A stretch of 64,000 nucleotides of DNA from positions 19,902,001 to 19,966,000 of the forward strand of contig JBHGNT010000002.1 in the NCBI GenBank assembly GCA_043228905.1. Direction: 5' to 3'. The notes under the pieces were generated by a model, which did not search any database, was not told where the DNA came from, and saw only the letters and a list, made by a program, of their open reading frames with translations. Made by a program: the position numbers and the translations under genes. The stretch is from Azolla caroliniana. Taxonomy: Eukaryota; Plantae; Polypodiophyta. Shown piece after piece: positions 3,060-29,800 of this stretch. Positions within the stretch are counted from its first letter, which is position 1. Every line of letters begins with the position of its first letter.

Positions 3060-3136
3060 CGTTTGTGTCAGCTATACATACATCATTACAACCCATGTAC
3101 AATATTGAGAGCCATCGGTGGAAACAGCCACCTAAG
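3060..3136 (-). mobile_element. 3' end of the L1-like LINE split by the copia insertion
   Basis: Joining across the TSD restores ...RPKWNYQALRWLFPPMALNIVHGL*. The same WLFPP terminal motif ends the L1 at about 33600. Confidence 0.7.
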
Positions 3137-3439
3137 TGTCGAATACAAGTGTATAATGGACGTATTCACACTATCCCTTTGTATAGCTCAAGTTTGGGCC
3201 ATTTGTGTAATTAGCATAAATGGTAGTTGCCCTAAGTTTGTCACTATATAAAGTGACCTAGTAACCTTTTTGTAAGGTTGGTTGTATTATTGTTTTCTAT
3301 TGAATAGAAAGAGTCTTTTGTGCCTCCTCTCTCTCTCTCTCTATCTCTGTGCACGATCTCAGAAACTGTCATACGCAGGTATTCAACTCCAATCGAATGC
3401 TACTTGATCTTCCGCATCGACACGGCCTTGTATCCAACA
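3137..3439 (+). repeat. Copia 5' LTR (303 bp)
   Basis: Direct repeat of 14011-14313 with no differences seen; TATA-like tatataaa at about 3245. Confidence 0.97.
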
Positions 3440-3441
3440 TT

Positions 3442-3453
3442 TGGTATCAGAGC
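3442..3453 (+). promoter_or_regulatory. Primer binding site for initiator tRNA-Met
   Basis: TGGTATCAGAGC lies 2 nt after the 5' LTR. Confidence 0.95.
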
Positions 3454-3598
3454 ATGCACAGTATTCGGTCCCTCAACCTGCTGTCGGCCGTCGTCTCAGC
3501 CTGCACAGCATTCGGTTCTTCGCTTCATCACAGCCTGCACAGTATTCGGTCTTTCGCTTCATCCTAGTCTGCAAAGCATTCGGCTTCTTGCGTCATTC
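3453..3598 (+). repeat. Degenerate short tandem repeats (about 35-45 bp spacing, x4) in the copia leader
   Basis: tgcacag(t/c)attcggt...cgcttcatc recurs about four times. Confidence 0.7.
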
Positions 3599-4113
3599 GA
3601 AGAAACAGAGAAGAAAGTAGGCAAACACAAGCTTGAATCTCGCTGCGTTAGATCATCACTCGGAGTAAGCCAGTCGGCTGTACTCTACTTCCTTGATCGT
3701 AACTGCTTGAGGTGGGCTTCCTGCACAACGACGACTTCAAGACAACAACCCCAATTCGTGCTTCATCCGGCTGATCGACACTCGGGAGGATCAGTTGGAT
3801 CCGTCTCTCTCGTCGATGCAGTCACCCGAAGCAGAATCGGTCCAGACAATCGGTTTCAATAATCGGTATTTGGCATATATATTCAGAAGCGAACCGGGCT
3901 CACTCCGACTCGGCAACATTCGGGAAGACCAGTCGGTTCTGTCCCTCAAGTTACCGGAGTCAATTCGAGCAAGTTCAACAATACATATATCCGAAGCCGA
4001 ACCGACTCGGGTTCAAATCCGACTAGAACGATATCGGGTGAGCCAACCGGCTGCACTCCAACAAGGTTCGTAGTCAACTCCGAACCGAGCTTCGTCAACC
4101 GAAACCAAATTTG

Positions 4114-5049
4114 ATGGCATCAACATCCGGCTCGTCAGAAATGAGTCTACGAAAGTTCGATGGATCGAACTTCAACTTCTGGAAGGAGCAAATGCAGGAC
4201 TATCTCATAGTCAAGGGGCAAATCGATCCCATCGAAAATGAAGAACCTCCAGAAGGATACAAACCAATTGAGTGGCAGAAGCTGGACAGGATCGTCCGCG
4301 CCACGATTCGGATGCACCTATCGGAATCGGTATACTTTACGGTGCAATCGTGTACGACAGCATTCGAACTGTGGAAAACACTGTCGGACACCTACGAAAA
4401 GAAGGTCGCTGCAACGAAGATGTTTCTGATCCGGCGCCTCTACAACTTGCGGATGAAAGAATCAGATTCGGTTCAAGCACATCTCAATGAGTACGAAAGC
4501 ATAAGCTCCCAAATCTCATCTCAGGGGACGGCAATCGAGGATGAACTCAGAGCAATGATACTCATGAGCAGTCTTCCCTCATCATGGGAAACTTTCGTCA
4601 CAACCGTGTGCAACGCGTCAACCACGACTGTTAAATACTCCGAAGTCACGAGCGCAATCCTGACCGAAGCAGCTCGGAGAAAGTCTTTCGCCAAAGATTC
4701 AACAGACGACGCTTATGTAGTACAAGGTTCGACAGACCGATCGAACATACGAGGAAGAGATTCCTCACGACAGCCGAACAATCAGCGAAGACGGAGCCAG
4801 TCACGGGATAATCGAATCTGCAACTATTGCAAGAAACCCGGACACATCAAAGCCGACTGCCGCGCACTCAAGAACAAGAACGACAAGTCTCAGAAATCAG
4901 ACAAGAAGAGTGGCCGGCATGAGGAGATCAATTACGTCAGCTTCTCAGCTGATGTGCTACCAAACGACCCGAATATACTAGATCAATCGAAAATCCAGTC
5001 GGATCAGAAGTTCTGCTCACGACTGAAGAATCGAGCACATGGCTCTTAG
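4114..5049 (+). CDS. gag: Copia Gag (zinc knuckle); frameshifted relative to pol near 4953-4990
   Basis: KFDGSNFNFWK, UBN2-like core, CNYCKKPGHIKADC knuckle. The protease motif WLLDSGASFH lies in the pol frame at about 5040-5070. Confidence 0.9.
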   Translation: MASTSGSSEMSLRKFDGSNFNFWKEQMQDYLIVKGQIDPIENEEPPEGYKPIEWQKLDRIVRATIRMHLSESVYFTVQSCTTAFELWKTLSDTYEKKVAATKMFLIRRLYNLRMKESDSVQAHLNEYESISSQISSQGTAIEDELRAMILMSSLPSSWETFVTTVCNASTTTVKYSEVTSAILTEAARRKSFAKDSTDDAYVVQGSTDRSNIRGRDSSRQPNNQRRRSQSRDNRICNYCKKPGHIKADCRALKNKNDKSQKSDKKSGRHEEINYVSFSADVLPNDPNILDQSKIQSDQKFCSRLKNRAHGS

Positions 5050-7901
5050 ATTCGGGCGCGTCATTTCACGTGACTCCTCATCGATCCCAATTTCGGCAAT
5101 ATACGATCCGTCACTCCGACTCAGTTCGAGTCGGCAACTCGCAACACTGTGACATCATTGGAATCGGCACAGTAGAGCTCAACCTTGCAGGTGGCTCTAC
5201 ACTTGTACTTCACAATGTCCGACATGTACCCGAGCTCTCAAGGCCATTGATCTCAGTCGGACAACTAGATGAAGACGGCATTCGTGCCGGTTTTTCTTCG
5301 GGAGGGTGGACACTCCACAGGGGGAACCTCCTGCTTGCTAGAGGACCCAAGATACACTCACTGTATCCGTTACATGTTACGCTCAGAGAGGGTAACCTGT
5401 TTTTGGTGGATATTCCTGTGTCATCGCTATGGCACAGAAGATTAGGACACCTCAGCAAGGCCGGCATTACGCACCTATCTAGAGCCGGATACATCCCTAA
5501 ACTCTCCTTCTCGGACCATCAATTCTGCGAACATTGCCAGTATGGCAAACAAGCAGCCGCATCACACCCGACATCAGCACCAAGAGAAACGAGACCTCTC
5601 GATTTAGTCCATTCGGACGTCTGTGGCCCAATGCCGCATCAGTCTCTCGGTGGTGCCTCTTACTTCGTCAGTTTTATTGACGATTCGACTCGAAAGGTGT
5701 GGGCTTATCCAATTCGCACCAAAGATCGTGTCTTCTCGATCTTCTCCGATTGGCTCGCTATGGTAGAAAATCAAACTGACCGAAAACGGAAATGCTTTCG
5801 GACCGACAATGGGGGAGAGTTCAAATCAGAAGAATTCGTCAAATTCTGCCGACAACGCGGCATCCGACGTGAATTTACGGCACCACACAGTCCGGAGCAA
5901 AACGGGATTGCAGAACGCATGAATCGGACAATCCAAGAACGGATAGTTTCCATGCTCCAACACTCCGGACTGTCGGATGGCTTCTGGGCAGAGGCTCTAC
6001 TCACGGCAGTACACATAATCAATATGTCGCCGAGCAGACCTCTAGGACTTCAAATTCCTCAGGAACTATGGATCGGCAGTAAGCCGAATTACGACAAGCT
6101 GAGGATCTTCGGATGCGAGGCGTACACCCTTATTCCGAAAGATGATCGCCGAAAACTTGCACCTCGGTCCAGGAAATGCATTTTCCTTGGATATGGATCA
6201 GACGGCGAAATGGGATACCGACTCTGGGACCCCGAACGCAGACAAATCGTTCGAAGTTCGGACGTTGTGTTCAACGAGTCGGCTATGAATCCATCAGTCG
6301 AAACACCGATCGAAGTCCGAAGGGTAACATTTTCCGATGTGCCGACCCTTCAAGAAGGCCCCGCTCTTAACACACGGTCAGCTTCACGGGTAGCTGAACC
6401 TTACACTACCGACTCGGACAACTCTGACTCGGCACAACAGAATAATTCGCTTTCGGACCATCCGACCTCGATACCCGATACGACCAGTCCAATCATACCT
6501 CGACGATCCGAGAGACTGTCGCAACCTCCGGAGAGGTATTCTCCTGGAATTTTCTTCACCGACGCCGGCGAACCGACGTCTTACGAAGAAGCATCGACAT
6601 CTGTCGATTCAGCCACCTGGCATCTGGCGATGGAGTCGGAAATGCACTCCATTCGGGCAAACAAGACTTGGGATCTGGTCGAATTACCTAAGAATCGACG
6701 TGCTCTTCCTTGCAAGTGGGTTTATCGACTAAAAGAGACGTCTGATTCGACCACCCCAAAGTACAAGGCCAGATTAGTTGCGAAGGGCTTCCGACAAGAA
6801 TATGGCGTCGACTTCAACGAGATTTTTTCACCAGTGGTGAAAATGACAACCCTTCGTTTTCTACTCGGCGTAGTGGCAGCCGACAACCTGGAGCTGATTC
6901 AGCTAGATGTCAAAACAGCCTTCCTCCATGGTGATCTTGAAGAGGAAATTTATATGGAGCAACCAAAAGGCTTCGTGGCAACTGGCCAAGAACATCTAGT
7001 CTGCCGACTCAGGAAGAGTCTATACGGCCTCAAACAGGCACCGCGACAATGGTACAAGAAGTTCGACGATTTCATCCAATCGATCGGCTTCTCAAAAAGC
7101 GATGAGGACCATTGTCTTTTTACCAACACAGCTCACGATGGATCACCCATCTTCCTCATCATCTACGTGGACGACATGCTAATTTCTGGACGCCACGCGG
7201 GCGAACTTGCCGATCTCGTTCGGCAATTGCGGTTGAAGTTTGCCATGAAGGACCTCGGTCCGGCACGACACATACTTGGCATGAAGATTAGTCGGCATCG
7301 CGATAAACGACATCTTTTCTTGTCTCAGACCGACTATATCGGACGTGTCTTGGAACGCTTCAACATGCAATCAGCCAAATCTGCGTCAACCCCGCTCCCC
7401 ATGAATCTTCGGCTCTCTCAGCGAGACTGCCCGACATCCGGTCCGGAGGGGGAAGATATGAAGTCGGTACCGTATGCACCGGCAGTCGGCTCCCTTATGT
7501 ACCTGATGGTCGCGACACGGCCTGATATTTCTCATGCCGTAGGAGTCGTTAGCAGATTTATGCACAATCCTGGCCGATCGCATTGGAACGCAATCAAGCA
7601 TGTGTTCAAATATCTGGCTGGCACAAAAGACCACGACATTCTTTTCGGTCCGAACTCAACCTCAGGCGTAGTCGGTTACACCGACTCGGACTTCGCCGGC
7701 TGTATAGACAGTCGGAAATCAACAACTGGATACTGCTTCAAATTCGGCAATGGAGCAATCTCGTGGAAGTCGAAACTTCAGGAGTGCACAACGACCTCAA
7801 CGACCGAAGCAGAATATGTAGCTGCGTCCGACGCTGCAAAAGAAGCTTTGTGGCTCGGCCGGCTGGCGCACACGTTTCGACAAGTCGACCATGACTCGGC
7901 C
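4983..7901 (+). CDS. pol: Copia Pol (protease, integrase, RT, N-terminal part of RNase H)
   Basis: WLLDSGAS; WHRRLGH...CEHC; VHSDVCGP/RTDNGGEF/NGIAERMNRT; QLDVKTAFLHG/YVDDML; YTDSDFAG/TEAEY. Start approximate. Confidence 0.95.
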
Positions 7902-8330
7902 TGTCAGGAATAGTACTAAAACAGAGATGGAATTAGTACTAAGAAGAGTAGTACTATTAGTACTAAGAGGACGGGACTGCGTAAGATTCCCGAGAGAGAG
8001 GAAGTGAGAAGAGGAGAGAGAGAGGGAAATAGGATGATGACAGCAGCTCTTATATTATATGAAAGATAAGTACAAATCGACTAAGAGGCTTAAGACTGGT
8101 GTTGAACCAATTTGGTTCAACATAATGCTTAGTGCCTTCTTTTATAGTGTTCTCAGGAATAATCCTGAAGCTTCTAGAATGTTCCAGAGAAATCTGGAAT
8201 ATACATTACTTTCTTATAATAAAACATAAATGAAAATAATATTCTATGAATTACAATAGATGGTGAGATGGTTAAGAGCTCGACCCATATACCATAAGGT
8301 CATGGGTTCGAGTCTTGCCATCTCATGACA
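7902..8330 (-). repeat. Gypsy 3' LTR (429 bp)
   Basis: Identical by eye to 13138-13566 and adjacent to the PPT. Confidence 0.97.
8258..8325 (+). other. tRNA-like / Pol III A-box plus B-box cassette inside the gypsy LTR U3, antisense to the element (second copy 13494-13561)
   Basis: TGGTGAGATGGTTAAGAGC at 8261 and GGTTCGAGTC at 8305 are 44 nt apart, as in tRNA genes. No proper acceptor stem. Confidence 0.55.
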
Positions 8331-8343
8331 CTATCTCCCCCTT
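8331..8343 (-). promoter_or_regulatory. Gypsy polypurine tract
   Basis: Minus strand reads AAGGGGGAGATAG directly before the 3' LTR. Confidence 0.9.
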
Positions 8344-11300
8344 AAAGACGACGAGTGGAACGAGTCAGCGCTACTTGCGGACCGGGTTTGTCCGGATACT
8401 TTCGGTGGAAATCAGCAAGAAGATCTTGGGCATTGGCAACATTCTCGACGGGTTCCCAAGTACGTTCGCTCGGACTATAACCGAGCCAATCGACCAAGTA
8501 ATAGAGTTTGTTGCGAACAAGTTTGGAATCGAGGATGGCAGCAACTTCATACTCCGGGCCGGCGTCCAACTCCAGTGGGGGCGGCGGTGGTGTCACACGA
8601 TCGGGAATGGTGTTTGCTTTATAAGGTTCAAGAAGAGAACAATGGAAAACCGGATGTATCTGAAGCTGCGGAGGGAGATCAAGGCGGAAGGTGACATCAT
8701 TAATCTTCCCCGTAATACGGAAAGGACCGAGTCGTCGATAATCCAACTTGTCGCACGGTCGAGTAGTCTTGATGTGACGACGTAAGAGCCATACTCGATC
8801 TCCGATGGCAAAAGAGGAGGGAATCCGATGACGATCCGCATAAGTCTTCTGTGTGTGTTGAGCATGACGAAGGTGAGTAGAGAGATCCATCTGGATCTTG
8901 CGTAGCCTCTCCAAATGATCCTCGGCACGAGGGTTGGTAGGTAGCTCCGGAGTGTCGATCACCGACCAGCGAGGATGGAAACCGGTATAAGCGAAAAATG
9001 GGGAGACCCGAGTCGAGGAGTGAATAGCATTATTATACGCAAACTCCGCAAAGTGGAGAATCTCGGCCCAATCGTCCTGTTGATAACTCAGGAAACACCG
9101 GAGATATTGCTCCAGCGTTTGGTTTGTTCGTTCCGCCTGTCCGTCGGTTTGAGGATGGTAGCCGGAGGAGAGGTTGCAGGAGACCTTGAGCATCTTGAAG
9201 AGATGCTGCCAAAATTTGGAGACAAATTGCGGGCCTCGGTCACTGATAATACTGTCTGGGAGGCCATGATGCCGAAAAACCTCACGCATAACAAGAGCGG
9301 CGGTTTCCTCGCTAGTGATGGCTTTAGTACATGGCACAAAATGTGCCATCTTCGTATATCGATCGACGACGGTTAGGATAGCATCGAACCCTTTCGAGAC
9401 CGGCAGATCTGTGATAAAATCAAGACAAATAGACTGCCATGGCTTACTTGGAATTGGTAAAGGTTCCAACAAGCCATATGGATGGTGTCGTGGCATCTTT
9501 GCTCGGCAGCAAGCATCACAGGTCCGAACGTAGTCGTCGACAAAACGGCGCATGTGGGGCCACCAAAAAGATCGCTGCACTAGCTCCAACGTCTTAGTAC
9601 TACCGAAATGTCCCGCCGTATGGGTGTCGTGACAATGTTGGACAATTTGAAGGCGACAAGAGCAATCGGGGACATATACGCGCTTTTTAAAGAATAACAA
9701 ACCATCATGATATTCGAATTGTCGGTAGTCAATACCTGGTTGTTGAGACTGAGAACAGGATGCCCGAGAAGTATCAATGTGCGCCAGGATGTCTTGAGCA
9801 AAACTATCCGTCTTCAAGGTTGCACGTATGTCATCGGTAATCCGTGAATCCATCGGGGTGTGAAAAATCCGCGTCGTGTGCAATCGTGTTGGTCCCAAGA
9901 TTACTTGCTTTTGATTATCAAATGTTGCTTCACCAGGACGAGGTGCAAGATATGAACGTCGTGATAGTGCATCTGCTTTTCCTTGCTGCTTCCCCGGTCG
10001 ATATGTGATTTTGAAGTCGAAACGCGTGAGGAATTGCGCCCACCGAGCTTGCCGTCGATTTAGTACGCGAGCGTTCTGAAAATAAGCAAGATTTTTATGA
10101 TCGCTGAAGACAATGACCTGATGTGGAGAGCCCTCTAAGAAATGCCGCCATTGTACAAATGAATCCACGATGGCTAATAACTCCTTGTCATGTATTTCGT
10201 AGTTGATTTCTGTGACATCGAATTTGCGCGAATGGAAAGCCACCGGATGCAACTCTTCTTTATCACCTTGTTGAGAAAGGATGCTACCGAGGGCGAAATC
10301 TGATGCGTCGGCCTCCATGATGAATGGTTTGCTTGTATCCACATGAGCTAGAATCGGTGCTGATGTAAAGGCTTTCTTAAGATGCCGAAAAGCCATATCT
10401 GCTTCAATGGACCAAAGAAATGCTTGGCCCTTCTTCGTAAGTTGTGTGAGAGGTAAAATAATCTTCGAGTAATCCTGTATAAACTTACGGTAGAAGTTAG
10501 CAAAACCTAGAAAACATTGTACATCTCGTACCGACCGTGGAATTTGCCACTCTAGTACAGTTTGGATCTTAGCTGGATCCATGGCGATGCCCTTTGAGGA
10601 GATGACGTAGCCTAGAAATTCCACTTGCTTGCAGTCAAAGCTACATTTTTCTAGCTTGGCATAAAGACCATTCTCGCGGAGTCGCTTTAGTACTAATAGT
10701 ACATGAGAGTCGTGCTCTTCCTGGGTCTTCGAATAAATCAACAGATCATCCAGATAAATGATCAAACAGATATCCAAGAGGTCTCTGAATATATCATTTG
10801 CCATGTGTTGGAAGACTGCGGGTGCATTGGTTAGGCCAAACGGCATAACAGTATACTCAAAATGCCCATACCGCGTGCGAAAAGCGGTCTTCCACTCATC
10901 TCCCGGTCGGATCCGCACGAGATTATACGCTCCGCGTAGGTCGATTTTAGTAAAAAACTTGGCACCATTAACTCGCTCTAAAAGACTTGATATAAGAGGA
11001 AGTGCATACCTATTCCGGATGGTGACTTTATTTAATCCGCGGTAATCAACGACAAGACGAAGTGAGCCATCTTTCTTCTTGACAAAGAAGATGGGTGCAC
11101 CGGCCGGAGATTTCGAATGACGGATGAACCCGCTTGCCAAGTTCTCCTCTATGTAGGCTCGAAGGACTTCTAACTCGGTGGGTGACAGGTTGTAAATTGG
11201 TCCCCATGGTGGCTCGGTTCCTGGTTGTAAATCGATGGGACAGTCATAGGGACGGTGATGAGGAAGGGTACCGGCTTTTACCTTGTCAAATACATCGGCA

Positions 11301-11923
11301 TAAGGATGATATTTTGCCGGAAGTTGTACTGAGGAGTCCTTCTTAATAGTGCTGGAAGGATGTACTGATATGGAAAATAGGAACATTGCCTCCTTGGGTC
11401 CTTCTTCGCGTAGTTGATGGAGTGAAATGGTCGAAACTCGGCGAGTTGATTCTTGGGGTGGTCGATATCGGACTTCTCTTGTTCTCCAATCTATGGCTGG
11501 ATTATGTAACTCAAGCCAAGGTAATCCTAGGACAATGGGATGCTCTGGACTACTAATTATATTAAATGATATTATACACACAAAACTACCTAGGACAACT
11601 TGAATGGGTTCTGATTCTTCTACAATATTCCCGGAAGCAATGGGACGACCATCAATGACCACTACAGATGCGGGACAAGGAAGTTTTCTTAAGGATATCT
11701 GAGAAGCTTGGGCAAAATTTCGATCCATGAAACAGGAATTAGCTCCGGAATCTAAAAGTGCTAGGACGGGTACTGGGGGAGTACTTTTAGTACTAACAAT
11801 GACTTGGGCTAGGAACACATTGCTAACTTGCTTGGAAGGAATGGAACCACTAATGGGCTGTACAGATCTAGGGCTGCTGTCCAACCAAATGGCTCCTATT
11901 TTGGCTGGACTCAATCGTTTAAC
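8342..11923 (-). CDS. pol: Gypsy Pol (protease, RT, RNase H, integrase, chromodomain), entered by a predicted -1 frameshift
   Basis: LLDSGANSCF; YLDDLL; EADASDFALG; HDTHTAGH...CDAC; LDFITDLP/ISDRGPQF; GPF; EYEVAAILDS...YLVDWLGY...TWEP. Confidence 0.97.
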   Translation of the reverse strand, partial: VKRLSPAKIGAIWLDSSPRSVQPISGSIPSKQVSNVFLAQVIVSTKSTPPVPVLALLDSGANSCFMDRNFAQASQISLRKLPCPASVVVIDGRPIASGNIVEESEPIQVVLGSFVCIISFNIISSPEHPIVLGLPWLELHNPAIDWRTREVRYRPPQESTRRVSTISLHQLREEGPKEAMFLFSISVHPSSTIKKDSSVQLPAKYHPYADVFDKVKAGTLPHHRPYDCPIDLQPGTEPPWGPIYNLSPTELEVLRAYIEENLASGFIRHSKSPAGAPIFFVKKKDGSLRLVVDYRGLNKVTIRNRYALPLISSLLERVNGAKFFTKIDLRGAYNLVRIRPGDEWKTAFRTRYGHFEYTVMPFGLTNAPAVFQHMANDIFRDLLDICLIIYLDDLLIYSKTQEEHDSHVLLVLKRLRENGLYAKLEKCSFDCKQVEFLGYVISSKGIAMDPAKIQTVLEWQIPRSVRDVQCFLGFANFYRKFIQDYSKIILPLTQLTKKGQAFLWSIEADMAFRHLKKAFTSAPILAHVDTSKPFIMEADASDFALGSILSQQGDKEELHPVAFHSRKFDVTEINYEIHDKELLAIVDSFVQWRHFLEGSPHQVIVFSDHKNLAYFQNARVLNRRQARWAQFLTRFDFKITYRPGKQQGKADALSRRSYLAPRPGEATFDNQKQVILGPTRLHTTRIFHTPMDSRITDDIRATLKTDSFAQDILAHIDTSRASCSQSQQPGIDYRQFEYHDGLLFFKKRVYVPDCSCRLQIVQHCHDTHTAGHFGSTKTLELVQRSFWWPHMRRFVDDYVRTCDACCRAKMPRHHPYGLLEPLPIPSKPWQSICLDFITDLPVSKGFDAILTVVDRYTKMAHFVPCTKAITSEETAALVMREVFRHHGLPDSIISDRGPQFVSKFWQHLFKMLKVSCNLSSGYHPQTDGQAERTNQTLEQYLRCFLSYQQDDWAEILHFAEFAYNNAIHSSTRVSPFFAYTGFHPRWSVIDTPELPTNPRAEDHLERLRKIQMDLSTHLRHAQHTQKTYADRHRIPSSFAIGDRVWLLRRHIKTTRPCDKLDYRRLGPFRITGKINDVTFRLDLPPQLQIHPVFHCSLLEPYKANTIPDRVTPPPPPLELDAGPEYEVAAILDSKLVRNKLYYLVDWLGYSPSERTWEPVENVANAQDLLADFHRKYPDKPGPQVALTRSTRRL
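11843..11923 (-). promoter_or_regulatory. Predicted -1 ribosomal frameshift signal (G_UUA_AAC plus H-type pseudoknot)
   Basis: The heptamer at 11923-11917 lies in the very short gag/pol overlap. A 6-nt spacer precedes the stem GUCCAGCCAAA/UUUGGUUGGAC, and loop GGAGCCA can pair with downstream UGGUUCC. Confidence 0.75.
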
Positions 11924-13068
11924 TCTTCATCTAATTGACTAAGGATTTCAAATTTATTTGAGATACTTGGGCTATTAGTACTATGAATACTATCTGACAC
12001 TCTATTAGTACTATTACTACTATCAGACACTCCGAAGGGAAGAATTGACTCAGGTTTAGTACAGGCGACAATTTGATTTACCTGTCTTCTTGGCCTATGG
12101 GGACAATTGATGGCGATATGTCCTGGTCCACCGCAATAAAGGCATAATCGATTGGCACGTCGTCGTTGCTTTTCTTCTTCCGATAACGGGCCGCGTCGAC
12201 GCATGGTATCGATCTCCATCGGTGTCGAAGTATTTGCTTGAGGTATGTCTCGTGCAAACGGTTTAGCCGCGACTGCGGCGTAAGTGGGCTCTGGCCTAGA
12301 GCGTGGTATCTGTAATTGACGTTCTGAACGCCGTTCAAAAAGGCGGTTGTCACATCGAACTGCCCGACTGATTGCCTCCGTAAGAGACTTTGGTTCTTCG
12401 GGGAAAGTTAGAAGTAGATCTTTGACATCGTTTCGCAAGCCATAGCGAAACTGCTCCATTAGTGCTTGATCATCCCAGGGTATATCTGAAGCAAGTAGGC
12501 GGAAATCCGCCGCGTAGGCAGAGGCTGGACGATCGCCTTGACGCAATCGCCGGATCTTGTTGATCGCCGTCCTGATGCTGTCGGTGTCTCCAAAGCAGGC
12601 TTTAAACTCACCAATAAAATCTTCAAAGTTATTAAGCAAGGGCGATTGTTTTTCTAGAAGCGGAGCGAACCATGCCAAGGCTGAGCCGCTAAGTAGTGTG
12701 CCTATTAGGCCGACTCGAGATGCATCAGTGGGATATCGGGAAGGATGCATCTGGATGACTAAGCGTACCTGATTAAGGAATCCCCGAAATTGCGAACGCG
12801 TTCCATCAAATTTCACAGGAAGTCCAATCTTGGGCTCTTTATGAAATCCTTGGGGACTGGATCCTTGTTGTTGCAACGCTGCTTCGAGTTGTTGTACCCG
12901 TAACGCTAACTCCCCATGTTGTTGTTGCGTTTGTTGTTTTTCTAGAGCGATTTGTTGCAGATCCCCTATCAGCCGTTGGTTTTCTTGTTCCAAGGCAACA
13001 AACTTTTCTTTTAGGCACTGTAGCTCGGAGAAAACGGATTGGTATTCTTGGGCGCTAACAGTAGCCAT
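11911..13068 (-). CDS. gag: Gypsy Gag (coiled coil, capsid, CCHC knuckle), PEG10/sushi-like
   Basis: EPKIGLPVKFDGTR...; LRQGDRPASAYAADF; TPMEID; CLYCGGPGHIAINC. Confidence 0.95.
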   Translation of the reverse strand: MATVSAQEYQSVFSELQCLKEKFVALEQENQRLIGDLQQIALEKQQTQQQHGELALRVQQLEAALQQQGSSPQGFHKEPKIGLPVKFDGTRSQFRGFLNQVRLVIQMHPSRYPTDASRVGLIGTLLSGSALAWFAPLLEKQSPLLNNFEDFIGEFKACFGDTDSIRTAINKIRRLRQGDRPASAYAADFRLLASDIPWDDQALMEQFRYGLRNDVKDLLLTFPEEPKSLTEAISRAVRCDNRLFERRSERQLQIPRSRPEPTYAAVAAKPFARDIPQANTSTPMEIDTMRRRGPLSEEEKQRRRANRLCLYCGGPGHIAINCPHRPRRQVNQIVACTKPESILPFGVSDSSNSTNRVSDSIHSTNSPSISNKFEILSQLDEELND

Positions 13069-13123
13069 AGTATAGGGGAAAGGGTAGGAAGATGAGGGAG
13101 AGTGACAAGTAGGCTAGAGGAAA

Positions 13124-13135
13124 AAATTGGTTCAA
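13124..13135 (-). promoter_or_regulatory. Non-tRNA primer binding site, complementary to the predicted 5' end of the element's own RNA
   Basis: Minus TTGAACCAATTT lies 2 nt after the 5' LTR and is the perfect complement of minus AAATTGGTTCAA at 13349-13338. Confidence 0.75.
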
Positions 13136-13137
13136 AC

Positions 13138-13566
13138 TGTCAGGAATAGTACTAAAACAGAGATGGAATTAGTACTAAGAAGAGTAGTACTATTAGTACT
13201 AAGAGGACGGGACTGCGTAAGATTCCCGAGAGAGAGGAAGTGAGAAGAGGAGAGAGAGAGGGAAATAGGATGATGACAGCAGCTCTTATATTATATGAAA
13301 GATAAGTACAAATCGACTAAGAGGCTTAAGACTGGTGTTGAACCAATTTGGTTCAACATAATGCTTAGTGCCTTCTTTTATAGTGTTCTCAGGAATAATC
13401 CTGAAGCTTCTAGAATGTTCCAGAGAAATCTGGAATATACATTACTTTCTTATAATAAAACATAAATGAAAATAATATTCTATGAATTACAATAGATGGT
13501 GAGATGGTTAAGAGCTCGACCCATATACCATAAGGTCATGGGTTCGAGTCTTGCCATCTCATGACA
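13138..13566 (-). repeat. Gypsy 5' LTR (429 bp), with TATAAAAG at 13382-13375
   Basis: Identical by eye to 7902-8330 and upstream of gag. Confidence 0.97.
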
Positions 13567-13571
13567 CGGCC

Positions 13572-13817
13572 CCAGTTGTCTATAGCGACAGTCAAGGTGT
13601 TGTTGCCTTGTCGAAAAATCCGGTTCACCACAACGCCTCCAAACATATCGACGTTCGGTATCACTTCGTTCGGGACTACGTCATTTCAGGGAAAATCGGT
13701 CTAGAGAAAATATCCACAACCGACAATGTCGCAGATGGAATGACCAAGTGTCTTTCGGCAGACCGCTTTCGGTCCCTTCGGCATCAGATGGGCGTAACGA
13801 CAAACCAGTCCGGTTAG
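13572..13817 (+). CDS. pol: Copia RNase H C-terminal part, resuming after the gypsy insertion
   Basis: PVVYSDSQ...KNPVHH...KHIDVRYHFVRD...NVADGMTK continues ...VDHDSA across the TSD. Confidence 0.93.
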   Translation, partial: PVVYSDSQGVVALSKNPVHHNASKHIDVRYHFVRDYVISGKIGLEKISTTDNVADGMTKCLSADRFRSLRHQMGVTTNQSG

Positions 13818-14003
13818 AGCCGGACACAGCGCAAGATGGTTTCAGACAACCGACATCAGTTCCTTAATGATCGGCTTCAACTCTTCCGACCCGACCAGTC
13901 CGGTCTTCTGCCTTCGGATCCTGCCGACTCGAACAAAACTGATATGTCCGAGAACCTAGGTTTATACCTGTAATCTTAGATAACCCATGTATACGCCCAT
14001 TAC

Positions 14004-14313
14004 GGGGGAGTGTCGAATACAAGTGTATAATGGACGTATTCACACTATCCCTTTGTATAGCTCAAGTTTGGGCCATTTGTGTAATTAGCATAAATGGTAG
14101 TTGCCCTAAGTTTGTCACTATATAAAGTGACCTAGTAACCTTTTTGTAAGGTTGGTTGTATTATTGTTTTCTATTGAATAGAAAGAGTCTTTTGTGCCTC
14201 CTCTCTCTCTCTCTCTATCTCTGTGCACGATCTCAGAAACTGTCATACGCAGGTATTCAACTCCAATCGAATGCTACTTGATCTTCCGCATCGACACGGC
14301 CTTGTATCCAACA
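14004..14313 (+). repeat. Copia PPT (GGGGGAG, 14004-14010) and 3' LTR (14011-14313)
   Basis: Direct repeat of 3137-3439. Confidence 0.97.
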
Positions 14314-17895: not shown

Positions 17896-18546
17896 GCTAG
17901 CGCTACCATTTGTGCCATGTTTTGGGTCAACCTCGACTATTTACCCTCTCATGATAGAAGAAGTCAAATCGATCGCTTCACTTGCACTCCTTCTCCCATT
18001 GTTGTTCCAAAATCCGGTGTGATTTTAATCACGGTGTACGCATGCAACGAAAAAGAAAAATGTGAATCTGGGAAGTAAGTGCCAGGCTTCTTGTCAAAGA
18101 AAGAGGAGAAACGAAATAGCTTGTATTGATATTTCCAAGATGATTACAATAGTATAGTTTGTCTCACTCCTTACAATAGCATCTTTTGTGTCTACTGTTA
18201 TTCACCCTTGATAAGATTACTCTTCCCCTTTTTATACATTAAGGAGGTGGGTGCATGAGTGGCAAGTGTTACCCATATGTATTAGGAAGGTGGATGCATG
18301 AGTGCCAAGTGTCACCCATGCATAAGGGGCACCTATAATAGTGGGTAATAGCTTTAATAGCTAAAATACTCGATAAAAATGTGCTTTGAATAAGTATTAG
18401 TGTTAAAAAGTGGGTAATAGCTAAAATAGCTAATACTAATAATAACAAGTGTGTTGATAATAGGTATTTAGCTTTAAAAGTGGGGTAATAGCTTTAATAG
18501 CTAAAATAGCTTATAGTGATAATAACAAGTGTGTTAATAATAGGTA

Positions 18547-20603
18547 CAGTAAACATTCGGTTAAGTGATTGTCCACTTAAGTGTACCATTCTATTAAGTG
18601 CGCTTTTTTTAGAGGTCAAAATCCAAATAAAAAAATTTCCATTGTTTCATGATGAAATTACATCAAACCAAATAGAAATTTGTTCCAAACATCTAGAAAA
18701 CAACAAAATGATCAACAAAAATATGATTTGTAAGTCTTTCTCTACTTCATACCAAAATCATGTAAGGTCATTTGCCTACTTTTAGCCATACGCTTAGAAA
18801 CAATGGCAGAATTTGTTTCTTGAATAATTCGACAAGCACTTGATAAAGCTAATTGTACTTGCTTTGCTTTTTCAGAACTCAAATAAGTTTTTTTCGTGAT
18901 TGAATTGAGCATGAGTTCACAATCAACAATATGTTTCAAGAGTTCAGGAATAATCACATCTTCTTCCTTTAAGCATCCATGCATGTCTTGAATCTCAACA
19001 AACTCAGAATCTGAATTGTTTTCATCATATGCAAGTGGCTCATTAGTGTTGGAAGCTTGTGTTATAACTTCATCAATCTCTTCAAGGAGATTTTGATTAA
19101 GTTTTTCTGATTCATTTGAATCTACATTACACATTCCATGATCTCATCTCGAATTTCTTCTACATGTGCATTTTCAAGAAAATTGCAATTACATAGCAAA
19201 GCAACAAGATCATTGATGCATTGATCTTCCATTTCACTAACTTCTGAATCAACATCATTAACACGAAATGATGGAATAATATCTGCCTTTTTATAGCAAT
19301 TAAAAATTGTCTCCTGCTTGATCTCATTCCAAGCAGTAACAATGCGATTCGCGACATCTAGCAAATGTGCCAACTTTCCAAAAGCTAAACCAATAGAGCC
19401 TCGTCTCATACATTTAGCAACATCTTCCAAACTAATCTTAACATAATCTGGACTATCATGATATGCCAAGATTTCTCTTACCAAATGATATTTGTACCTC
19501 TTTTTCAAAGCTGCAATGATTCCCATATCCATCGGTTGCTTCCAAGATGTGACATTTGCCAGGAAAAAAATCACTTTAATAGCATCATGCTCAAATGCTT
19601 CGGCATGACCAAGTGCATTATCAAGGATTAAAAGCACTTTGCGATTAGTTCGCTCTAAATTCACCTCAACATTTCATTCCCTACCAGTCAAGTGTAGATG
19701 TACAAAAACCTTTTGAAGGTTTAAACTCTTTGACATTTAATGCATACAACCTTATTTAAGTCACAATTAACTTAAAATTCATAGACGAATGAATTGGGTC
19801 TTCTCCAATTAAGTTGGAATATTATCCATCAAGGAGGCACACATGTTAGAATGTGGATACAATCTTGATCTAATTTTGTTGAAACTTTGCTTTGGAGAAA
19901 GACTAATGTTGTGAACCACAAAATGAATTCTACTTAGATGTTCCAATGCTACCATAAAATAGGTTGTGCATGGGTCTATGAAGAGGAAGCTAATAAGCTA
20001 TTAATCGATTAATAGCTTATTATTTGGACTAACATGAAGGGAAAGCTATTAATTGATTAATCGCTTAATAGCTTATTATATGGACATCTTCCAAACGATT
20101 GTCTACTTATACATATTTTTCTTACCCTATATTTAGCCAAATATGTGGATTATTTCTCCTAAGCCACATGCCATATCAACCACAACAAAATATGTGGATA
20201 TCAAACTAAAGAAATCGTGCACAATTTCTAAACAATTAACACATTTCCATCTAAATTATGCACAAATTTAGAACCTCTCTTCTCTTCCTTCTCTCATATT
20301 CATTCACAACTAATAGACATAAAAAATAGACAGGAAAGAAAATACATACCTAAAGACAAATTTAGGAGCAAGAATGTGGTGAGTGATGTGGATTAGAGTA
20401 GCGCTAGTAGTAGCAACGGGTTGATTACAAAAGAAGAAAGGGTCTTTTTATATGGCTAGTTGGGTTGTGCTTTCTGCGAAAGAGAAGAGAGAAAAAAAAT
20501 TGCGGGAAATTTTTTTTGACTTAAAAAGCCCTAAGTGTGCGGCTCAGTTAAGTGCGCACTTCTTCCTTGCGTTCAAAGTGTGCACTTAATCGAATGTCTA
20601 CTG
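18547..20603 (-). mobile_element. Tc1/mariner pogo/Tigger-like DNA transposon, internally deleted
   Basis: TIRs CAGTAAACATTCGGTTAAGTG / CAGTAGACATTCGATTAAGTG; TA TSD at 18545-6 and 20604-5. Confidence 0.92.
18742..19664 (-). pseudogene. pogo DDE_1 transposase C-terminal half, frameshifted near 19130
   Basis: RKVLLILDNALGH...NVTSWKQPMDMGIIAALKKRY; acidic tail ending RQMTLHDF. Confidence 0.9.
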
Positions 20604-21108
20604 TATTTAGCTTTAAAAGTGGGTAATAGTTCTAATAGCTTTAATAGCCAAAATACCTGATAGTGATAATAAATGTGTTTTGAATAGGCATTTAGCTTTA
20701 AAAGTGGGTAATAGCTTTAATAACTTTAATAGCTAAAATACATGATAGTCATAATAGCAAGATGTGTTGATAACAGGTATTTAGTTTTAAAATATTTTAC
20801 TCGATATTATGTTTTTTTTTTGTAGATTCAACTAGCTATTATAATCCTATGGTGAGTGTTCTTATCATGTTATTAGCTATCACTTAGTTAAACAACCATT
20901 TACAAATATTTGAATCAGTTCATATAATTTGGTAGAGGTTATTTTCTTATTGTGGCACGAAAACGTCATGACACTAGTGAGGACTACACATGGTCACTCA
21001 TGTCCGTTGGTGTTCCAATCTTCAGTGACAACCGCACATGGTTGCTCATGCCCGTCGGTGCTCCAATTCTCGCTCACCCCTACACCACACTTTCGAAAAG
21101 GCAATTGT

Positions 21109-21526
21109 AAAGGGGAGAATAATGTCACGACACAGTGACATAAAATATATAGTTGGTGAGGATTGAACCTATAATCTCACTCAACAAGATATCATGCTCA
21201 ACCATTTTGATATGAGCATTATCTAAAAATACTCTTTAGTCATGTACCTCTACAAAGCTCTAGAGGGTTCTAGAATGTTCTCCAGAATATTCTAATGCAT
21301 GTACTTCAACTCACAGTATAAATATTTGTAACCTCCTTGGTCCCTTTCAGGGGATTCAACACCAGTCATTGACACATCAATCCAGTATTCTCGTTTCGCC
21401 CCATCTTGTCTCATTGATCTTTATCTCTATCTTCATGCTTTTGTGTCATCCCATCTTCTTAAGTTCCACGCTCTTAGCCCCATCATTCGTGCTTCGTCTA
21501 GGTTCACGGTTGGTGTGTCCGTGACA
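21109..21526 (+). mobile_element. PPT plus 3' LTR (21123-21526) of a diverged sister chromovirus family
   Basis: aaggggagaataa|TGTCACG...CGTGACA. Shares ttctagaatgttc, TATA and ttcaacaccagtc motifs with the gypsy LTR. An APILAHP-coding remnant lies at about 21060. Confidence 0.7.
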
Positions 21527-23832: not shown

Positions 23833-26800
23833 ATGTTGAGGTTCTCTAGCGTCTTCATCTCTTCTTTGCCATCGCTCTGCCATCGCCCTCCTTCCATGAT
23901 CTCTGCCCGACCTTCCATGAGACCATTTTATATGCAACCACCATCATCATCATCATCATCTTCTTCTTCTTCCTCTTCTTTAAATATTTGTAGAGCTTCT
24001 TCTTCTTCCTTCTCCTCTTCCTCTTCCTCGTCTTCTTCTTCTTCTTCTTCTTCTGCACAAAATCATCGTGAAAGGCTTCTTCAACACTTGCTTCTCAGAG
24101 AAGATCAGCTTACTCTGCTGTTAGACCTTCAGCGTGAGGCACAGCAAGGCAGGTTAGTTTTCTTTGTTTCCTTCTTCTTATTATTTCTCTTTTTAGAACG
24201 TCCGTTAATAGGTAAAACAAAACAAACAAACAAAATTTATTTCTCGTGCGTGCATTAATTAGAAAGACAGAAAAATATGCGTTTTTCTCTCTCTTCTCTG
24301 CAAATTATGGTGATTCAATGCAGTGATTTGAGTGATTTAGCAACAGAACATTCTATATGCTCCTCCAAGAGTGATGGTGGCATGCTGGGATGGGTTCAGA
24401 GGGGCCAGATGGTAAGTATAGCTACTCGAAAAGAAACTATATTAAAACTGCATTATATTGGTTAAAACGAACAACAAAGGTTATGGGCATACACGACATT
24501 ATACAATTAAAGGAGTCAATTCATCATGGAGTCTGTGATGCTAGAGCGAAGGATTTGCCATTGGATATCTGAATCGATGATGAATTTCTTTCTTTCTTTG
24601 ATAATCCTAGGTACCAGAGTTTGAAGAAGCTGCATTTTCAGCTCCTCTGAATAAGATTGTCCGTGTGAAAACTAAATTTGGATGGCACCTCGTTCAAGCC
24701 CTTGCTGAGAGGTAAACTTCTTTTTCCATTAAATCAGCCATTTTTCTTCTTCTTTTGTTTTGATGGATAACCATACACACAAAGTTTTTTATGGGGATGA
24801 TGAATTCAACATTTCCTTAACCTAGATCCCGAGCATAGTGTCGACATAAAATTGCCCGAAACCAGCATTTAACAATTTGCTTTAGAAGAAAGAAAGCTAT
24901 GCTTGTTCCTTGCACCATCTTATTGTATGTATGTAGATGTATATTGACCTTCACTTGCATTTGGGCACTATGTGTATGTTGTGATGCTAGTGCTCTGATA
25001 ACTTTCTACATGTAGTTGTCAACAATGTATGCTCCGATTTGTTGTAAATTTGTATCTACCTAAAATACTCATAGTTCCGATCATTAAAACCTAGTTATTT
25101 ATAAATTCAATGAGGTGGAATCACCAGTGGGGGGTAGAATAATCCTCTCTACCTTATGGACAAGACATGATTGATGCAACCTCTTACCATATATATTAGA
25201 TAAGACTTAGTGATATAGGTCTTCTTTGCCCAAACTACTGCAATGAATACCAGTTAAATTTCAAGTACTGCCTTTCAGAAGAAGGGGTCCTTATCAACAT
25301 CCATGAATAGTGACCTTTAGGAGACACATGTGGCAGTGCCATCAGAATTTAACTCTTGCAGCTCCTCATTCTTTGAATACAATGACTTGGTTAAACCAGA
25401 TCCCAAGGGCTTGGTAACAATGCAACCAACAATCAGATAGTTATGAATGTTTATCTATGTAGGAATATGAAAAGTCTATGATGTTTGTGCTATATGCAGA
25501 TAATTTCATTACTCATAATGACATGAGAGGAGAGCCCATGAAGATCTTCATATCCAATCACTATTGCTACTAAACAGTGGCAAATATTGGTTTGTTTGTC
25601 AGTAGTACAATGACACATATAGAGGTCAATGCTAAGTTATGTGTCAGAAGTATATAGAAACAAAAATTGGGCTGTACAAGAAGTTTGTCAGTAGCACGGT
25701 GTGTTGAACTTAAGAAGAATGGTTAATACAATATGGAAATGTCTGGAAAATGATTAGAAGGAGAGCAAATAAGCAGATTAGTGGATTGTGGATGAATGAT
25801 GAGGAACCCAGGGAACAAGAGAAAGAGAACAAGGCAATGCCATAAGATAAATGATTTAGCAAACTATAAGTTAACATCCAAAACTGAAGGAACTATTAGA
25901 CTTCATCATTGGTGGTATCGAGATGTTTGGCCAGTTCCCAACTAGCTTCTGATACAGGGTAGCATTCCATCAGACTAGCTATGATAGTTTCCACTCTAGT
26001 TGGTGACTAGTGATCAAGGAATACAGTGTGGAACCAAACGACCAGTTCCCAAGTAGCTTCTGATACAGGGTAGTATTCCGTCAGACTAGATATAATAGTT
26101 TCCACTCTAGTTGGTGAATAGTGATCAAGGAATACAGTGCGGAGCCAAACAGGCATAGGGAGCTGCATCTATCATAGCATATGCCATTCACATGTTGATC
26201 ATATCCCATTGATGATCACTGCAAACTGTTGTCTTGTGTATTCCCATTTTTTTAGTTCAATGCTTGTGCATACATGTATCTGTTTGATTTATTGATTAGG
26301 AAAGTTTTTAGTATAGAAACTCCTTTAAAATTGGAGAGAGGACCAAAGCATCAACCGCAATGTTTTTCTTGATTAATGATCCAAGTATCAGTGTTGAAGA
26401 CTACAATCTATGTTTAGTTTCTCTATAAACTGGCAATTTATCATCTAATTGTCTTTGCCCTCTGCTTGAATCTTAAGTGAACAACACGGCCAGGCTAGAT
26501 AAAGCCATAGAGATGATCGTAGGGACATTTGTCCAATTCATTGGGAAAGAAGTCTCATGCTACTTGGAGGCTTACAAAGCCAAGATGCTTATGAGAGACA
26601 TACTAGAGGCAAGGTGGTTAAGCATCTTTGCAAGGGTCGTAACGCCAAGCCTCCCACGAGACAAAGAAGAACTTGAATGATTGGGTCGAGTCACCTGGAA
26701 AGGCGATGAGCTCCTCTACAGCATTTCAAGAGTTCAAGAAGTGGCAGTGAACTATATATCGAAGAACCAGCCAGCATTACTATACGGGGAAAGATGCATC

Positions 26801-29800
26801 ATGTTCTTTTGAGTTCTTTAACACAATCAGTGTAATCCCCTCACACATTAATACAATCATTTCAAGAGTTCAAGAAGTGGCAGTGAACTATATATCGAAG
26901 AACCAGCCAGCATTACTATACGGGGAAAGATGCATCATGTTCTTTTGAGTTCTTTAACACAATCAGTGTAATCCCCTCACACATTAATACAATCATTTCA
27001 AGAGTTCAAGAAGTGGCAGTGAACTATATATCGAAGAACCAGCCAGCATTACTATACGGGGAAAGATGCATCATGTTCTTTTGAGTTCTTTAACACAATC
27101 AGTGTAATCCCCTCACACATTAATACAATCATTTCAAGAGTTCAAGAAGTGGCAGTGAACTATATATCGAAGAACCAGCCAGCATTACTATACGGGGAAA
27201 GATGCATCATGTTCTTTTGAGTTCTTTAACACAATCAGTGTAATCCCCTCACACATTAATACAATCATTTCAAGAGTTCAAGAAGTGGCAGTGAACTATA
27301 TATCGAAGAACCAGCCAGCATTACTATACGGGGAAAGATGCATCATGTTCTTTTGAGTTCTTTAACACAATCAGTGTAATCCCCTCACACATTAATACAA
27401 TCATTTCAAGAGTTCAAGAAGTGGCAGTGAACTATATATCGAAGAACCAGCCAGCATTACTATACGGGGAAAGATGCATCATGTTCTTTTGAGTTCTTTA
27501 ACACAATCAGTGTAATCCCCTCACACATTAATACGTGAACTGAACCTCGAAACTTGAATGCTGCAAGCAGCAAATAACATTTCCTATATGCCCATATGGA
27601 GCTTAAGCATACGTAGTACATCCAGGGTGGCCCATGGCATTTGCTTAAGCCCATCATGGAGTGCCATATCGATCACTTTGAGAAATAACGTACATCTTCT
27701 ATCCCCCTTGACAATGGCGCAAAGGGTTAAATGTGATCCAAGGTAGAAAAATCATCAGTATCCTTCCTATCTCCAGGTGCTCTTTGCCATTCTTTCCATG
27801 CTAATAAGATCCTCCAATAATGCTTAGAAAATCAAATTAGAGTCTTGGTCCTCTAGATTCCGAATCTTCTATAATTGTTAACTTTTTTAAATCAATCTTA
27901 CAATTAGGATCTAATTCTTTCACAATGATGAGAAATAGTTTTTGACTTAATTTTCTTTTCTTATCAGAATGTGTTAGGATTTCTCTCCTGGCAATCTTCA
28001 AATTTGTATGAATTGACGAATCCATCTAAAGTTGAATTCTAATGGAAATTATCTATTATGTAGCAAACACTGCAATCGCTTCATTAAATACTGACCGAAC
28101 TTGAGAAGTTCACTGTGCTGGATAGATCTATTGTGAGGGAGAAGAATTTTTGTCTTGTTCTAAAGCTCAACCTGGATAAGTTTTGGCAACACAGGGAATC
28201 GAGCTTCTTAAAGGAGGTTCAGCCAGACGAACTTCATTCTCGTTTACAGGATCCTAGCTTTCTCTCAGAGTCTCAGCTTATTGATGTTCGTGAACCAGAT
28301 GAAATGTAAGTAATGAAACCAAACCAAACACATATTATGATTTTAATTTTCAAATGTATTCCAATTTTGAATGGTTAAATGAAAACTGTCATGTACAAAT
28401 TCATGCATGATCCCTTATTTAATTGATCAAGTATAAATCAGCATGGTCAAGTACATAATCTCCTTGAAAAGTGCTGAATACTGTTAGTTTTTTTCTTGAG
28501 TTTCTTATCTTCCTAGCTCAGTTTACCCGTACATTCTTGGGACATTCTTAAAGATAGATTTTATTATCTTATTGGGATGTCAAGTATTACCTATGGGACC
28601 AAGTGAAATATTTTCATGTAACAAATGTGAAGTTGATAAATGACTCTGGTCAAGAACTTTACTGAGTTTGAAAGTTGCAATAAAGTTGCACAATGTGACA
28701 GCAATTTGTGCAGGAAACAGGCCAGAGTTGAATATGTGGCACAAGCAAGCTCAGATTTAATCGAAAGTCCAAAGTCTGGTCAAGAACTCTACTGAGTTTG
28801 AAAATTGCAATAAAGATTGCACAATGTGGCAGAAATTTGTGCAATAAACAGGCCAGAGTTGAATATCTGGCACAAGCAATCGCAGATTTAATTGAAGCTC
28901 AGCTTTGCATTTGTCATACTCAGGCTTGCAAACAAGGACAAACTTGTTTGCATCCAAAGTCCAAAGTCCAAAGTGGGAAATCTTCAAACACATTTCACAA
29001 TATATGACGTTACAGACAAATGATAAGATTACCAAATTTGAGTTAGATTTACCAATACTGCCATTGAAGCAAGAGATACTAGTTTGTACTGTACATTTTT
29101 AGGTCTGCCCAAACTTCATTAGGTGGTGTACCGTGTAACTATTTGTCTTTGTGAAAAATAGGAATTTCTATTTGCCTTTGTTTTCATGTTTGATATGCTT
29201 CCACAATTATTTCAGTCATTGAATGATTCATTCCTACTACCTTTATCTATCTTCTACTCTGTCACAATTTTTGTTTATTCCTTCCGAAATCCCTCTTCTG
29301 CCCACCCATTCTATTCTTCTCTTCCTCTTATTTCTACCTTTCTCTCTCCTCATCCATCATGTAATGATTTCTGATGTGTGCCCCTCTTCTCAATCATTCA
29401 TGTGGGACGAAATGCTTCTATCTTTCTTTAATTTCTCTCATACAGTTCCTTAGGGATGGCATGTGAAGTTATTATTTCTCCTTACTGTGACATTTCGACA
29501 ATAAATCTAAATGGGCTTGTTTACAGATCAACTGCAGCAATTGCAGGATTTAAACCTTATCCATTAAGCCAGTTCAGTCAATGGGGTCCACAAATTTCAA
29601 TGGAGCTTGATACCTCTAAAGATACATATGTACTGGTAATGTAGTCTCTATACTTTCTAGCTTAAGATTGTAAAAATGCTTAAAACCTGATCAAAATCAA
29701 ACCCAGCCTTCAATATGATGATGTTTGTATAGGTGTGATGTCTCTCTAGTTCCAGCCAAAGCTAACAGAAACAGGGGTTAAATGTGAACAAATTAAACCT

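Follow-up and report, generated by a model that had tools for sequence, protein, structure and literature searches.

The window, by which is meant the whole 64-kb stretch of Azolla caroliniana DNA that was analysed, contains an intact Ty3/gypsy chromovirus of 5.7 kb on the minus strand (Table 1) which is autonomous in that gag and pol are both intact. The deduced product of pol contains a chromo domain recognised as PF00385 (E 1e-13) with the aromatic cage residues Y, W and Y as read off the translation. The site of insertion is the pol gene of a copia element. The LTRs are identical in the chromovirus and also in the enclosing copia element, indicating nested young insertions. A further polypurine tract (PPT) and LTR start were observed near 14484 on the minus strand. 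Elsewhere the window contains a perfect 136-bp tandem array (26722-27534), a 210-bp tandem array (41781-42416) and an open frame of 391 codons that contains internal repeats and matches Rho_N weakly (39612-40787). Two pairs of dispersed repeats were also observed, 600-1121 with 43795-44321 and 18336-18546 with 20603-20792, of which the latter lies on either side of a decayed frame near 19122-19673 and possibly represents the ends of a DNA transposon.

Table 1. Coordinates of the chromovirus, its LTR cassettes and the neighbouring elements in the 64-kb window.
Feature	Position	Strand	Remarks
Copia element	3135-14313	+	identical LTRs at about 3135-3439 and 14009-14313
TSD CGGCC of the chromovirus	7897-7901 and 13567-13571		
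3' LTR	7902-8330	-	429 bp, TGTCA...TGACA
AT-rich stretch	8216-8251	+	89% AT, in the interval 10-45 nt upstream of the A box; putative TFIIIB platform
A box (tRNA positions 8-19), 3' LTR copy	8261-8271	+	antisense to the element
Long hairpin that overlaps the two boxes	8263-8326	.	strong in the window copy and L001
Extended B box (positions 46-61), 3' LTR copy	8299-8314	+	G53 at 8306; exact consensus match
Polypurine tract	8331-8343	-	abuts the 3' LTR end at 8330
pol ORF	8342-11926	-	PR, RT, RNase H, integrase, chromodomain
gag ORF	11911-13113	-	
PBS complementary to the self-primer	13124-13135	-	
5' LTR	13138-13566	-	429 bp, identical to the 3' LTR
Predicted self-primer	13338-13349	-	12 nt; lies about 30 nt past the TATA box
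TATA box of the putative Pol II promoter	13375-13382 (3' LTR copy 8139-8146)	-	115 nt from T8, divergent from the cassette
A/B cassette of the 5' LTR	13497-13550	+	A box 13497-13507, B box 13535-13550; points out of the element
Diverged sister LTR	21123-21526	+	preceded by a PPT
A/B cassette of the sister LTR	21160-21212	-	T8 at 21212, G53 at 21168; antisense to the sister LTR

The outer approximately 70 bp of U3 in both LTRs contains a tRNA-type A box and an extended B box, antisense to the element. The pair lies at the U3 edge at the coordinates, in the orientation and with the tRNA spacing reported for it in a preliminary description of this DNA, the distance from T8 (8261) to G52 (8305) being 44 nt. 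The bases invariant in tRNAs are T8, A14, R15, G18 and G19, together with Y48, G53 to A58, Y60 and C61. The A box of the window copy is a degenerate minority variant in which G replaces the invariant A14. The extended B-box consensus GTCnnnnGTTCRAnYC, which also fits isolated B boxes (PMC3159450), has two exact matches in the 64-kb window, one in each LTR. The mean number of matches expected by chance is 0.10 and none of 100 shuffles reached two, although the copies in the two LTRs represent a single event. The boxes of the sister LTR lie antisense at the places previously noted. With the window, its near-twin L001 and the sister LTR all left out of its construction, a profile ranked both window copies first in the 64 kb (E 6e-11) and the sister LTR third (E 0.035). 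Besides these three LTR sites, eight A/B-like matches were found in the window against a chance rate of about seven.

The cassette was also evaluated as a possible tRNA gene. With ARAGORN, neither the window nor 60 of the 80 loci scanned yielded a tRNA gene, and no Rfam tRNA match to the cassette was obtained even at E<=10. The acceptor stem is missing, as had been noted before. Identity as a tRNA gene was rejected based on the lack of an acceptor stem, the empty ARAGORN and Rfam results and the pairing of only 42% in the acceptor and anticodon stems.

In the window and in the related loci L007, L008 and L010, the PBS of the chromovirus can pair with 12 nt of the element's own LTR that lie some 30 nt past the TATA box; the complementarity covers 9 nt in L019. 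A match was found at five of the six junctions found, the sixth (L001) being without a partner LTR stretch in the sequence available. The PBS and its LTR partner change in step between families, and the covarying 12-nt complementarity bears out the earlier proposal that the element primes itself. Self-priming of the Tf1 type has been predicted for Tcn1 as a feature of the clade (PMC6317226).

In order to determine which relatives carry the cassette, the pol C-terminus was aligned with nine relatives and the best 80 of 586 matching metagenome stretches were taken. The 80 loci and the window comprised 59 with an LTR start after a PPT and at least 110 nt of U3, 6 that were too short and 16 without a start. 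The scan for the cassette used the invariant tRNA bases only and was conducted on both strands. Among the best 80 of 586 and the window, the cassette was present in the antisense orientation in all 13 scorable close LTRs (57-92% identity to the window) and in the sense orientation in none, and the sister LTR also carries it. The cassette was absent from either strand in the first 200 nt of U3 of all 46 distant LTRs among the same best 80 of 586. By comparison, about 1% of shuffled U3 sequences scored on either strand per LTR. The close set was chosen after the sequences had been seen, although the pol tree groups the same 13 independently. In this tree, a quick one, the 13 carriers and three close loci with short U3 form one clade with an SH-aLRT value of 93 (95 for a 14-row core). 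The twelve clade loci belong to one accession series and thus probably derive from a small number of related hosts, and the families are not independent of each other in the phylogeny. The results indicate that the cassette is clade-wide and not the one-off insertion that the preliminary description had named as a refuting outcome.

Some of the distant LTR starts are possibly miscalled. A profile search of the whole distant loci also returned no match at E<1. A further 20 distant loci from genome contigs (31-58% identity) included 11 with a putative LTR start, none of which had the cassette, and no profile match at E<1 was obtained in those 20 loci. Viral contigs contained no relative. The entries L081-L100 are eukaryotic chromovirus-like contigs within prokaryotic genome bins, which probably reflects contamination. 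The lineage of the chromovirus is Tcn1-like (Tf1/Sushi group) as judged by its features. Tcn1 is a clade of seed-free plants and fungi (PMC6317226, PMC2864245).

Additional tRNA-like sequences were observed in two of the related loci. L002 contains a second antisense A/B cassette at 1004-1065 and 6329-6390 on the minus strand, in frame inside pol of two related elements. These second cassettes lie in a protease-RT linker that is about 20-27 residues longer than that of the window, and each has one mismatch to the B-box consensus. The linker cassette is absent from the window, L001, L005-L008, L010 and L011. A non-coding flank in L009 (270-540), possibly another LTR, contains three tRNA-like heads, two in tandem on one strand and a third on the opposite strand, and one of these heads has 12 nt of A-box sequence in common with the cassettes of L004 and L006, hinting at a SINE-like source in the host. 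Together, the second cassettes of L002 and the heads of L009 suggest that tRNA-like heads were captured more than once in the host lineage.

The conservation of the cassette was evaluated with ten family representatives. Pairwise identity was 0.78 at the A-box invariants and 0.80 at the fixed B-box positions, the latter inflated because the B-box columns were the alignment anchor. In the same ten cassettes the identity was 0.52 at the n positions of the consensus, 0.34 and 0.25 in the two halves of the anticodon stem and 0.31 in each flank. Thus, as the preliminary description had supposed, the boxes are kept better than the neighbouring U3 (0.78-0.80 versus 0.25-0.34 in spacer and flanks). 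Fourfold-degenerate sites of pol in nine of the ten families were identical in 784 of 1860 comparisons (0.42). In an earlier and poorer alignment the identity of the A-box invariants was 0.62. The number of steps on the pol tree was 0.88 per box column versus 3.21 elsewhere, and the A box alone, which was not an anchor, differed from the spacer and flanks with p = 0.0015. The A-box bases T8, A14, R15, G18 and G19 are present in 10, 8, 9, 8 and 10 of the ten representatives, respectively. Mismatches to the B-box consensus among 14 LTRs numbered zero in seven, one in five and two in two, and C56 is lost in two copies (L007 and L013).

The arrangement of the boxes is also kept. The distance from G19 to G53 is steady at 33-35 nt, while the distances from G53 to the LTR end (25-58 nt) and from T8 to the TATA box (104-184 nt) vary. 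The AT content of the 35 nt that lie upstream of the A box is 80-97% in nine families and 69% in the sister LTR, and this stretch is AT-richer than the DNA up to the TATA box in all eight LTRs that show both. The 50 nt upstream of plant tRNA genes are likewise A/T-rich (PMC11700998). Except for the TATA box and the self-primer region, the rest of U3 can hardly be aligned between families. Copies of the window's own family were compared in two runs (605 and 44 contigs), in which no variant above 3% was listed at 8293-8345 and 26 were listed at 8225-8292. The canonical A14 is present in most own-family copies of both runs, with the reservation that contig depth is not a copy count. Within the spacer, positions 34-38 have an identity of 0.67, with T35 in 12 of 12 and T37 in nine of ten. 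Midway between the A and B boxes (8287-8291 in the window and the homologous columns), the spacer has an ATRT-like motif that is conserved across families. The pair formed by positions 11 and 24 is kept in 12 of 12 and has changed at both of its positions, although this is one of 21 pairs examined and the sequences are related. The conservation of positions 34-38 and of the pair 11-24 is not explained by a pure DNA-binding site.

In contrast to the boxes, the RNA features of the cassette are not kept across the clade. The hairpin of the window has z values of -7.6 on the plus strand and -5.8 on the minus strand. In the comparison across 14 LTRs, the tRNA-sense values are -6.3 for the window and -4.5 for L001. 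The tRNA-sense values elsewhere are -2.8 for the sister LTR, -1.6 for L019 and between -1.1 and +0.1 for the other 10 of 14, and RNAalifold found no pair common to the clade cassettes. The long hairpin was therefore rejected as a conserved unit; the fold recognised in the preliminary description is real in the window copy (z -7.6, plus strand) and limited to the window's sub-family. Pairing in the cloverleaf was 50.4% compared to 47.4% in shuffled sequences (40/500). Pairing by stem was 42% in the acceptor and anticodon stems, 58% in the D stem and 65% in the T stem. Cloverleaf covariation showed no excess over shuffles that survived relatedness (20 to 173 of 500).

A T4 run was found inside the LTR in five of the ten representatives, with 2.4 expected, and at the PPT in two more. 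In the window, the first T4 downstream of G53 is 1378 nt away in the context of the 3' LTR and 599 nt away in that of the 5' LTR, and the predicted length of a Pol III product ranges across families from about 55 nt to more than 1 kb. There is no terminator common to the families, which weakens the earlier interpretation of the cassette. The CAA at 8254, near which a transcript start had been placed, is not kept across the families and was rejected as a conserved start signal. At 8265-8267 the window has three adjacent bases unlike those of most family copies in the two runs, each of which pairs with 8322-8324, with a probability by chance of about 1/27. The change looks like the correction of a quasi-palindrome by template switching, in which A14 was given up.

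Overall, the cassette is a real and lineage-specific feature, an antisense A/B-box promoter at the edge of U3, and the pattern of conserved bases indicates that it is probably a TFIIIC-type site on which selection acts. The bases that are kept match a type 2 Pol III promoter and no common RNA product is predicted, results suggesting that a protein-DNA complex is the likeliest function. By analogy with known TFIIIC sites, it is predicted that a TFIIIC/TFIIIB complex opens the LTR or walls it off from flanking silent chromatin, a role to which we assign a probability a little short of even. TFIIIC would bind both the A box and the B box and load TFIIIB on the AT-rich stretch, which would place the TFIIIB platform upstream of the Pol II TATA box, at a distance of about 60-175 bp, in divergent orientation to the Pol II promoter. 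Within the 5' LTR the complex would stand between the host chromatin and the element's promoter and, as the cassette there points outward, any Pol III transcript would leave the element. The benefit would be a nucleosome-poor or barrier zone for an element with a chromodomain that is predicted to direct it to heterochromatin. In yeasts, TFIIIC-bound sites function as barriers (PMC10530723), and a group I chromodomain binds H3K9me (PMC3350952), with which a barrier or open-chromatin role is in agreement. The cassette may go back to a tRNA or SINE head that was captured once in the ancestor of the clade, after which most sequence dispensable to the promoter would have decayed.

Several observations are against the chromatin role. 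The precedent for barriers is from yeast and animals and not from plants. A barrier needs the B box alone, yet the A box and the upstream stretch are also kept, which is equally fitting for transcription. The 46 distant relatives with the same kind of pol end do without the cassette, indicating that the chromodomain does not require it. Moreover, the window copy inserted recently, as judged by its identical LTRs, despite the loss of A14.

The boxes, their spacing and the AT-rich upstream stretch are all kept as they would be in a working Pol III promoter whose RNA matters, either as antisense RNA over the PPT and integrase end from the 3' LTR or as a short RNA or hairpin, tuning silencing or copy number. 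The distant first T4 in the window would permit a long antisense RNA, and the in-LTR T4 runs above expectation, the paired T stem and the invariably paired positions 11 and 24 are in line with an RNA product, as is the finding that foamy viruses make Pol III miRNAs from U3 (PMC3993851). This role is nevertheless considered unlikely based on the wide range of product length between families, the restriction of the strong hairpin to the window and L001, the lack of a pair common to the clade and cloverleaf pairing close to that of shuffled sequences. The place and orientation of the cassette are also those of the 3' PBS of Ty3, to which a tRNA pairs through its T-psi-C and D arms (PMC5371799), and U3 RNA could anneal in a Ty3-like manner to a host tRNA at the T arm, variable loop and D loop, serving packaging, dimerisation or end-joining and not priming. 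The boxes have mostly changed by transitions that wobble would tolerate, and all four loop regions, including the anticodon loop, are better kept than the stems. Since the PBS pairs with the element's own LTR a tRNA primer is unneeded, and the predicted self-priming weakens the Ty3-like explanation without removing it. Positions 49-52 and 59 of the T stem vary with transversions (identity 0.52) where a single tRNA would fix them, position 37 is T in nine of ten where tRNAs have a purine, and neither the fixed spacing nor the AT-rich upstream stretch is predicted by annealing to a tRNA, which is accordingly judged decidedly unlikely.

A distinctly improbable alternative is that TFIIIC and TFIIIB on the LTR form a landing pad that draws further integrations of retrotransposons of its own or other families. 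Ty3, DGLT-A and TRE5-A are attracted by tRNA genes or isolated B boxes, isolated B boxes being sufficient as TRE5-A targets (PMC3159450), and some chromoviruses adjoin tRNA genes (PMC5006619). The window element, however, sits in a copia pol gene with no tRNA gene detected by ARAGORN in the window or in 60 of the 80 loci, and what the element would gain is unclear. Insertions upstream of the A box were absent from the three LTRs of the window and from the clade LTRs readable to the TATA box, which is weak evidence since contigs of high coverage collapse copies. Loose contig ends in the LTR are scattered over single contigs and do not mark one insertion site. Occurrence in a single clade, for which one origin is enough, would also be expected of a passenger, that is, a worn SINE or tRNA head captured once in the clade ancestor and functionless now. 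The loss of A14 from the recently mobile window copy agrees with this explanation, as does the report that 'not a few LTRs' hold tRNA-like pieces (PMC10886601). It is already disfavoured and very improbable, given that the boxes are far better kept than the spacer, the flanks and fourfold-degenerate sites, and that losses follow the promoter consensus base by base. The space between G53 and the LTR end amounts to only 25-58 nt, in which no tail is common to the families, and no free copy of the cassette was found outside LTRs in the 64-kb window.

The predicted TFIIIC/TFIIIB site can be compared with several known systems. Pol III boxes have been reported in the LTRs of Helenus (tRNA-derived) and Cassandra (5S-derived) (TRIMp3; Kojima 2024, PMC10886601). 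As in these elements, of which one Helenus family is from a lycophyte, the Pol III boxes within the LTR of the chromovirus are kept and RNA structure mostly is not (PMC10886601). Helenus and Cassandra are short non-autonomous TRIMs with a tRNA-primed PBS, whereas the chromovirus is 5.7 kb, autonomous and predicted to be self-priming, with its own TATA promoter; Helenus and TRIMp3 are non-coding and about 0.3-1.3 kb in length, whereas the chromovirus encodes gag and pol. The boxes of Helenus and Cassandra are proposed to make template RNA, implying a sense orientation that the text of PMC10886601 leaves unstated, in contrast to the antisense boxes in 13 of 13 chromovirus LTRs. That study analysed TRIMs alone and expected autonomous partners to rely on Pol II (PMC10886601). 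The foamy virus SFVagm resembles the chromovirus in having an A/B-box Pol III unit in U3 of an autonomous retroelement, and differs in its hairpins, terminators and proven miRNAs (PMC3993851); the hairpin and terminator of the chromovirus cassette are not conserved and a product RNA is hypothetical. The bipartite PBS of Ty3 is likewise similar in that U3 sequence is the complement of two arms of a tRNA, T-psi-C and D (PMC5371799). Ty3 employs one tRNA (iMet), the 3' end of which primes at the 5' PBS (PMC5371799), while the PBS of the chromovirus matches its own predicted 5' end and its conserved cassette bases are those common to all tRNAs.

The same extended B-box consensus and a proposed role in chromatin are shared with extra-TFIIIC sites and tRNA-gene barriers, although the known cases are at fixed host loci and often have a B box only, whereas the chromovirus is mobile and has an A box too (PMC10530723, PMC3159450). 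The chromodomain with aromatic residues, the self-priming PBS, LTRs of about 430 bp and the 5-bp TSD are as in plant Tcn1, for which the accessible parts of the published descriptions mention no tRNA-like LTR box (PMC6317226, PMC2864245, PMC3350952); the 46 distant relatives lack the cassette in the first 200 nt of U3. An antisense, lineage-conserved cassette in an autonomous chromovirus was not found in a search of largely open-access literature. The preliminary description had known of no such arrangement, which within that search holds for the arrangement itself, and had missed the precedents in the bipartite PBS of Ty3, Helenus and foamy viruses. The 'not a few LTRs' with tRNA-like pieces to which Kojima refers are in Repbase (PMC10886601), so that autonomous cases may be on file unstudied.

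With these results the occurrence of Pol III boxes in LTRs reaches beyond short TRIMs to autonomous elements, in which the boxes have an orientation unable to transcribe the element. The results touch on the open question of how an LTR element remains transcribable after insertion into heterochromatin, and provide a small mutable candidate consisting of two boxes whose conservation is readable at each base and which occur in one clade and not in its relatives. It is possible, although on the unlikely side, that the cassette is a domesticated tRNA promoter that functions as a portable insulator, in which case each new copy would bring along its own outward-pointing TFIIIC/TFIIIB site at the edge of the LTR, shield its own Pol II promoter and scatter many chromatin boundaries genome-wide. 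Such TFIIIC barriers are little studied in plants and, if TFIIIC binds, a high-copy element would supply a plant genome with extra-TFIIIC sites from a large and mobile source.
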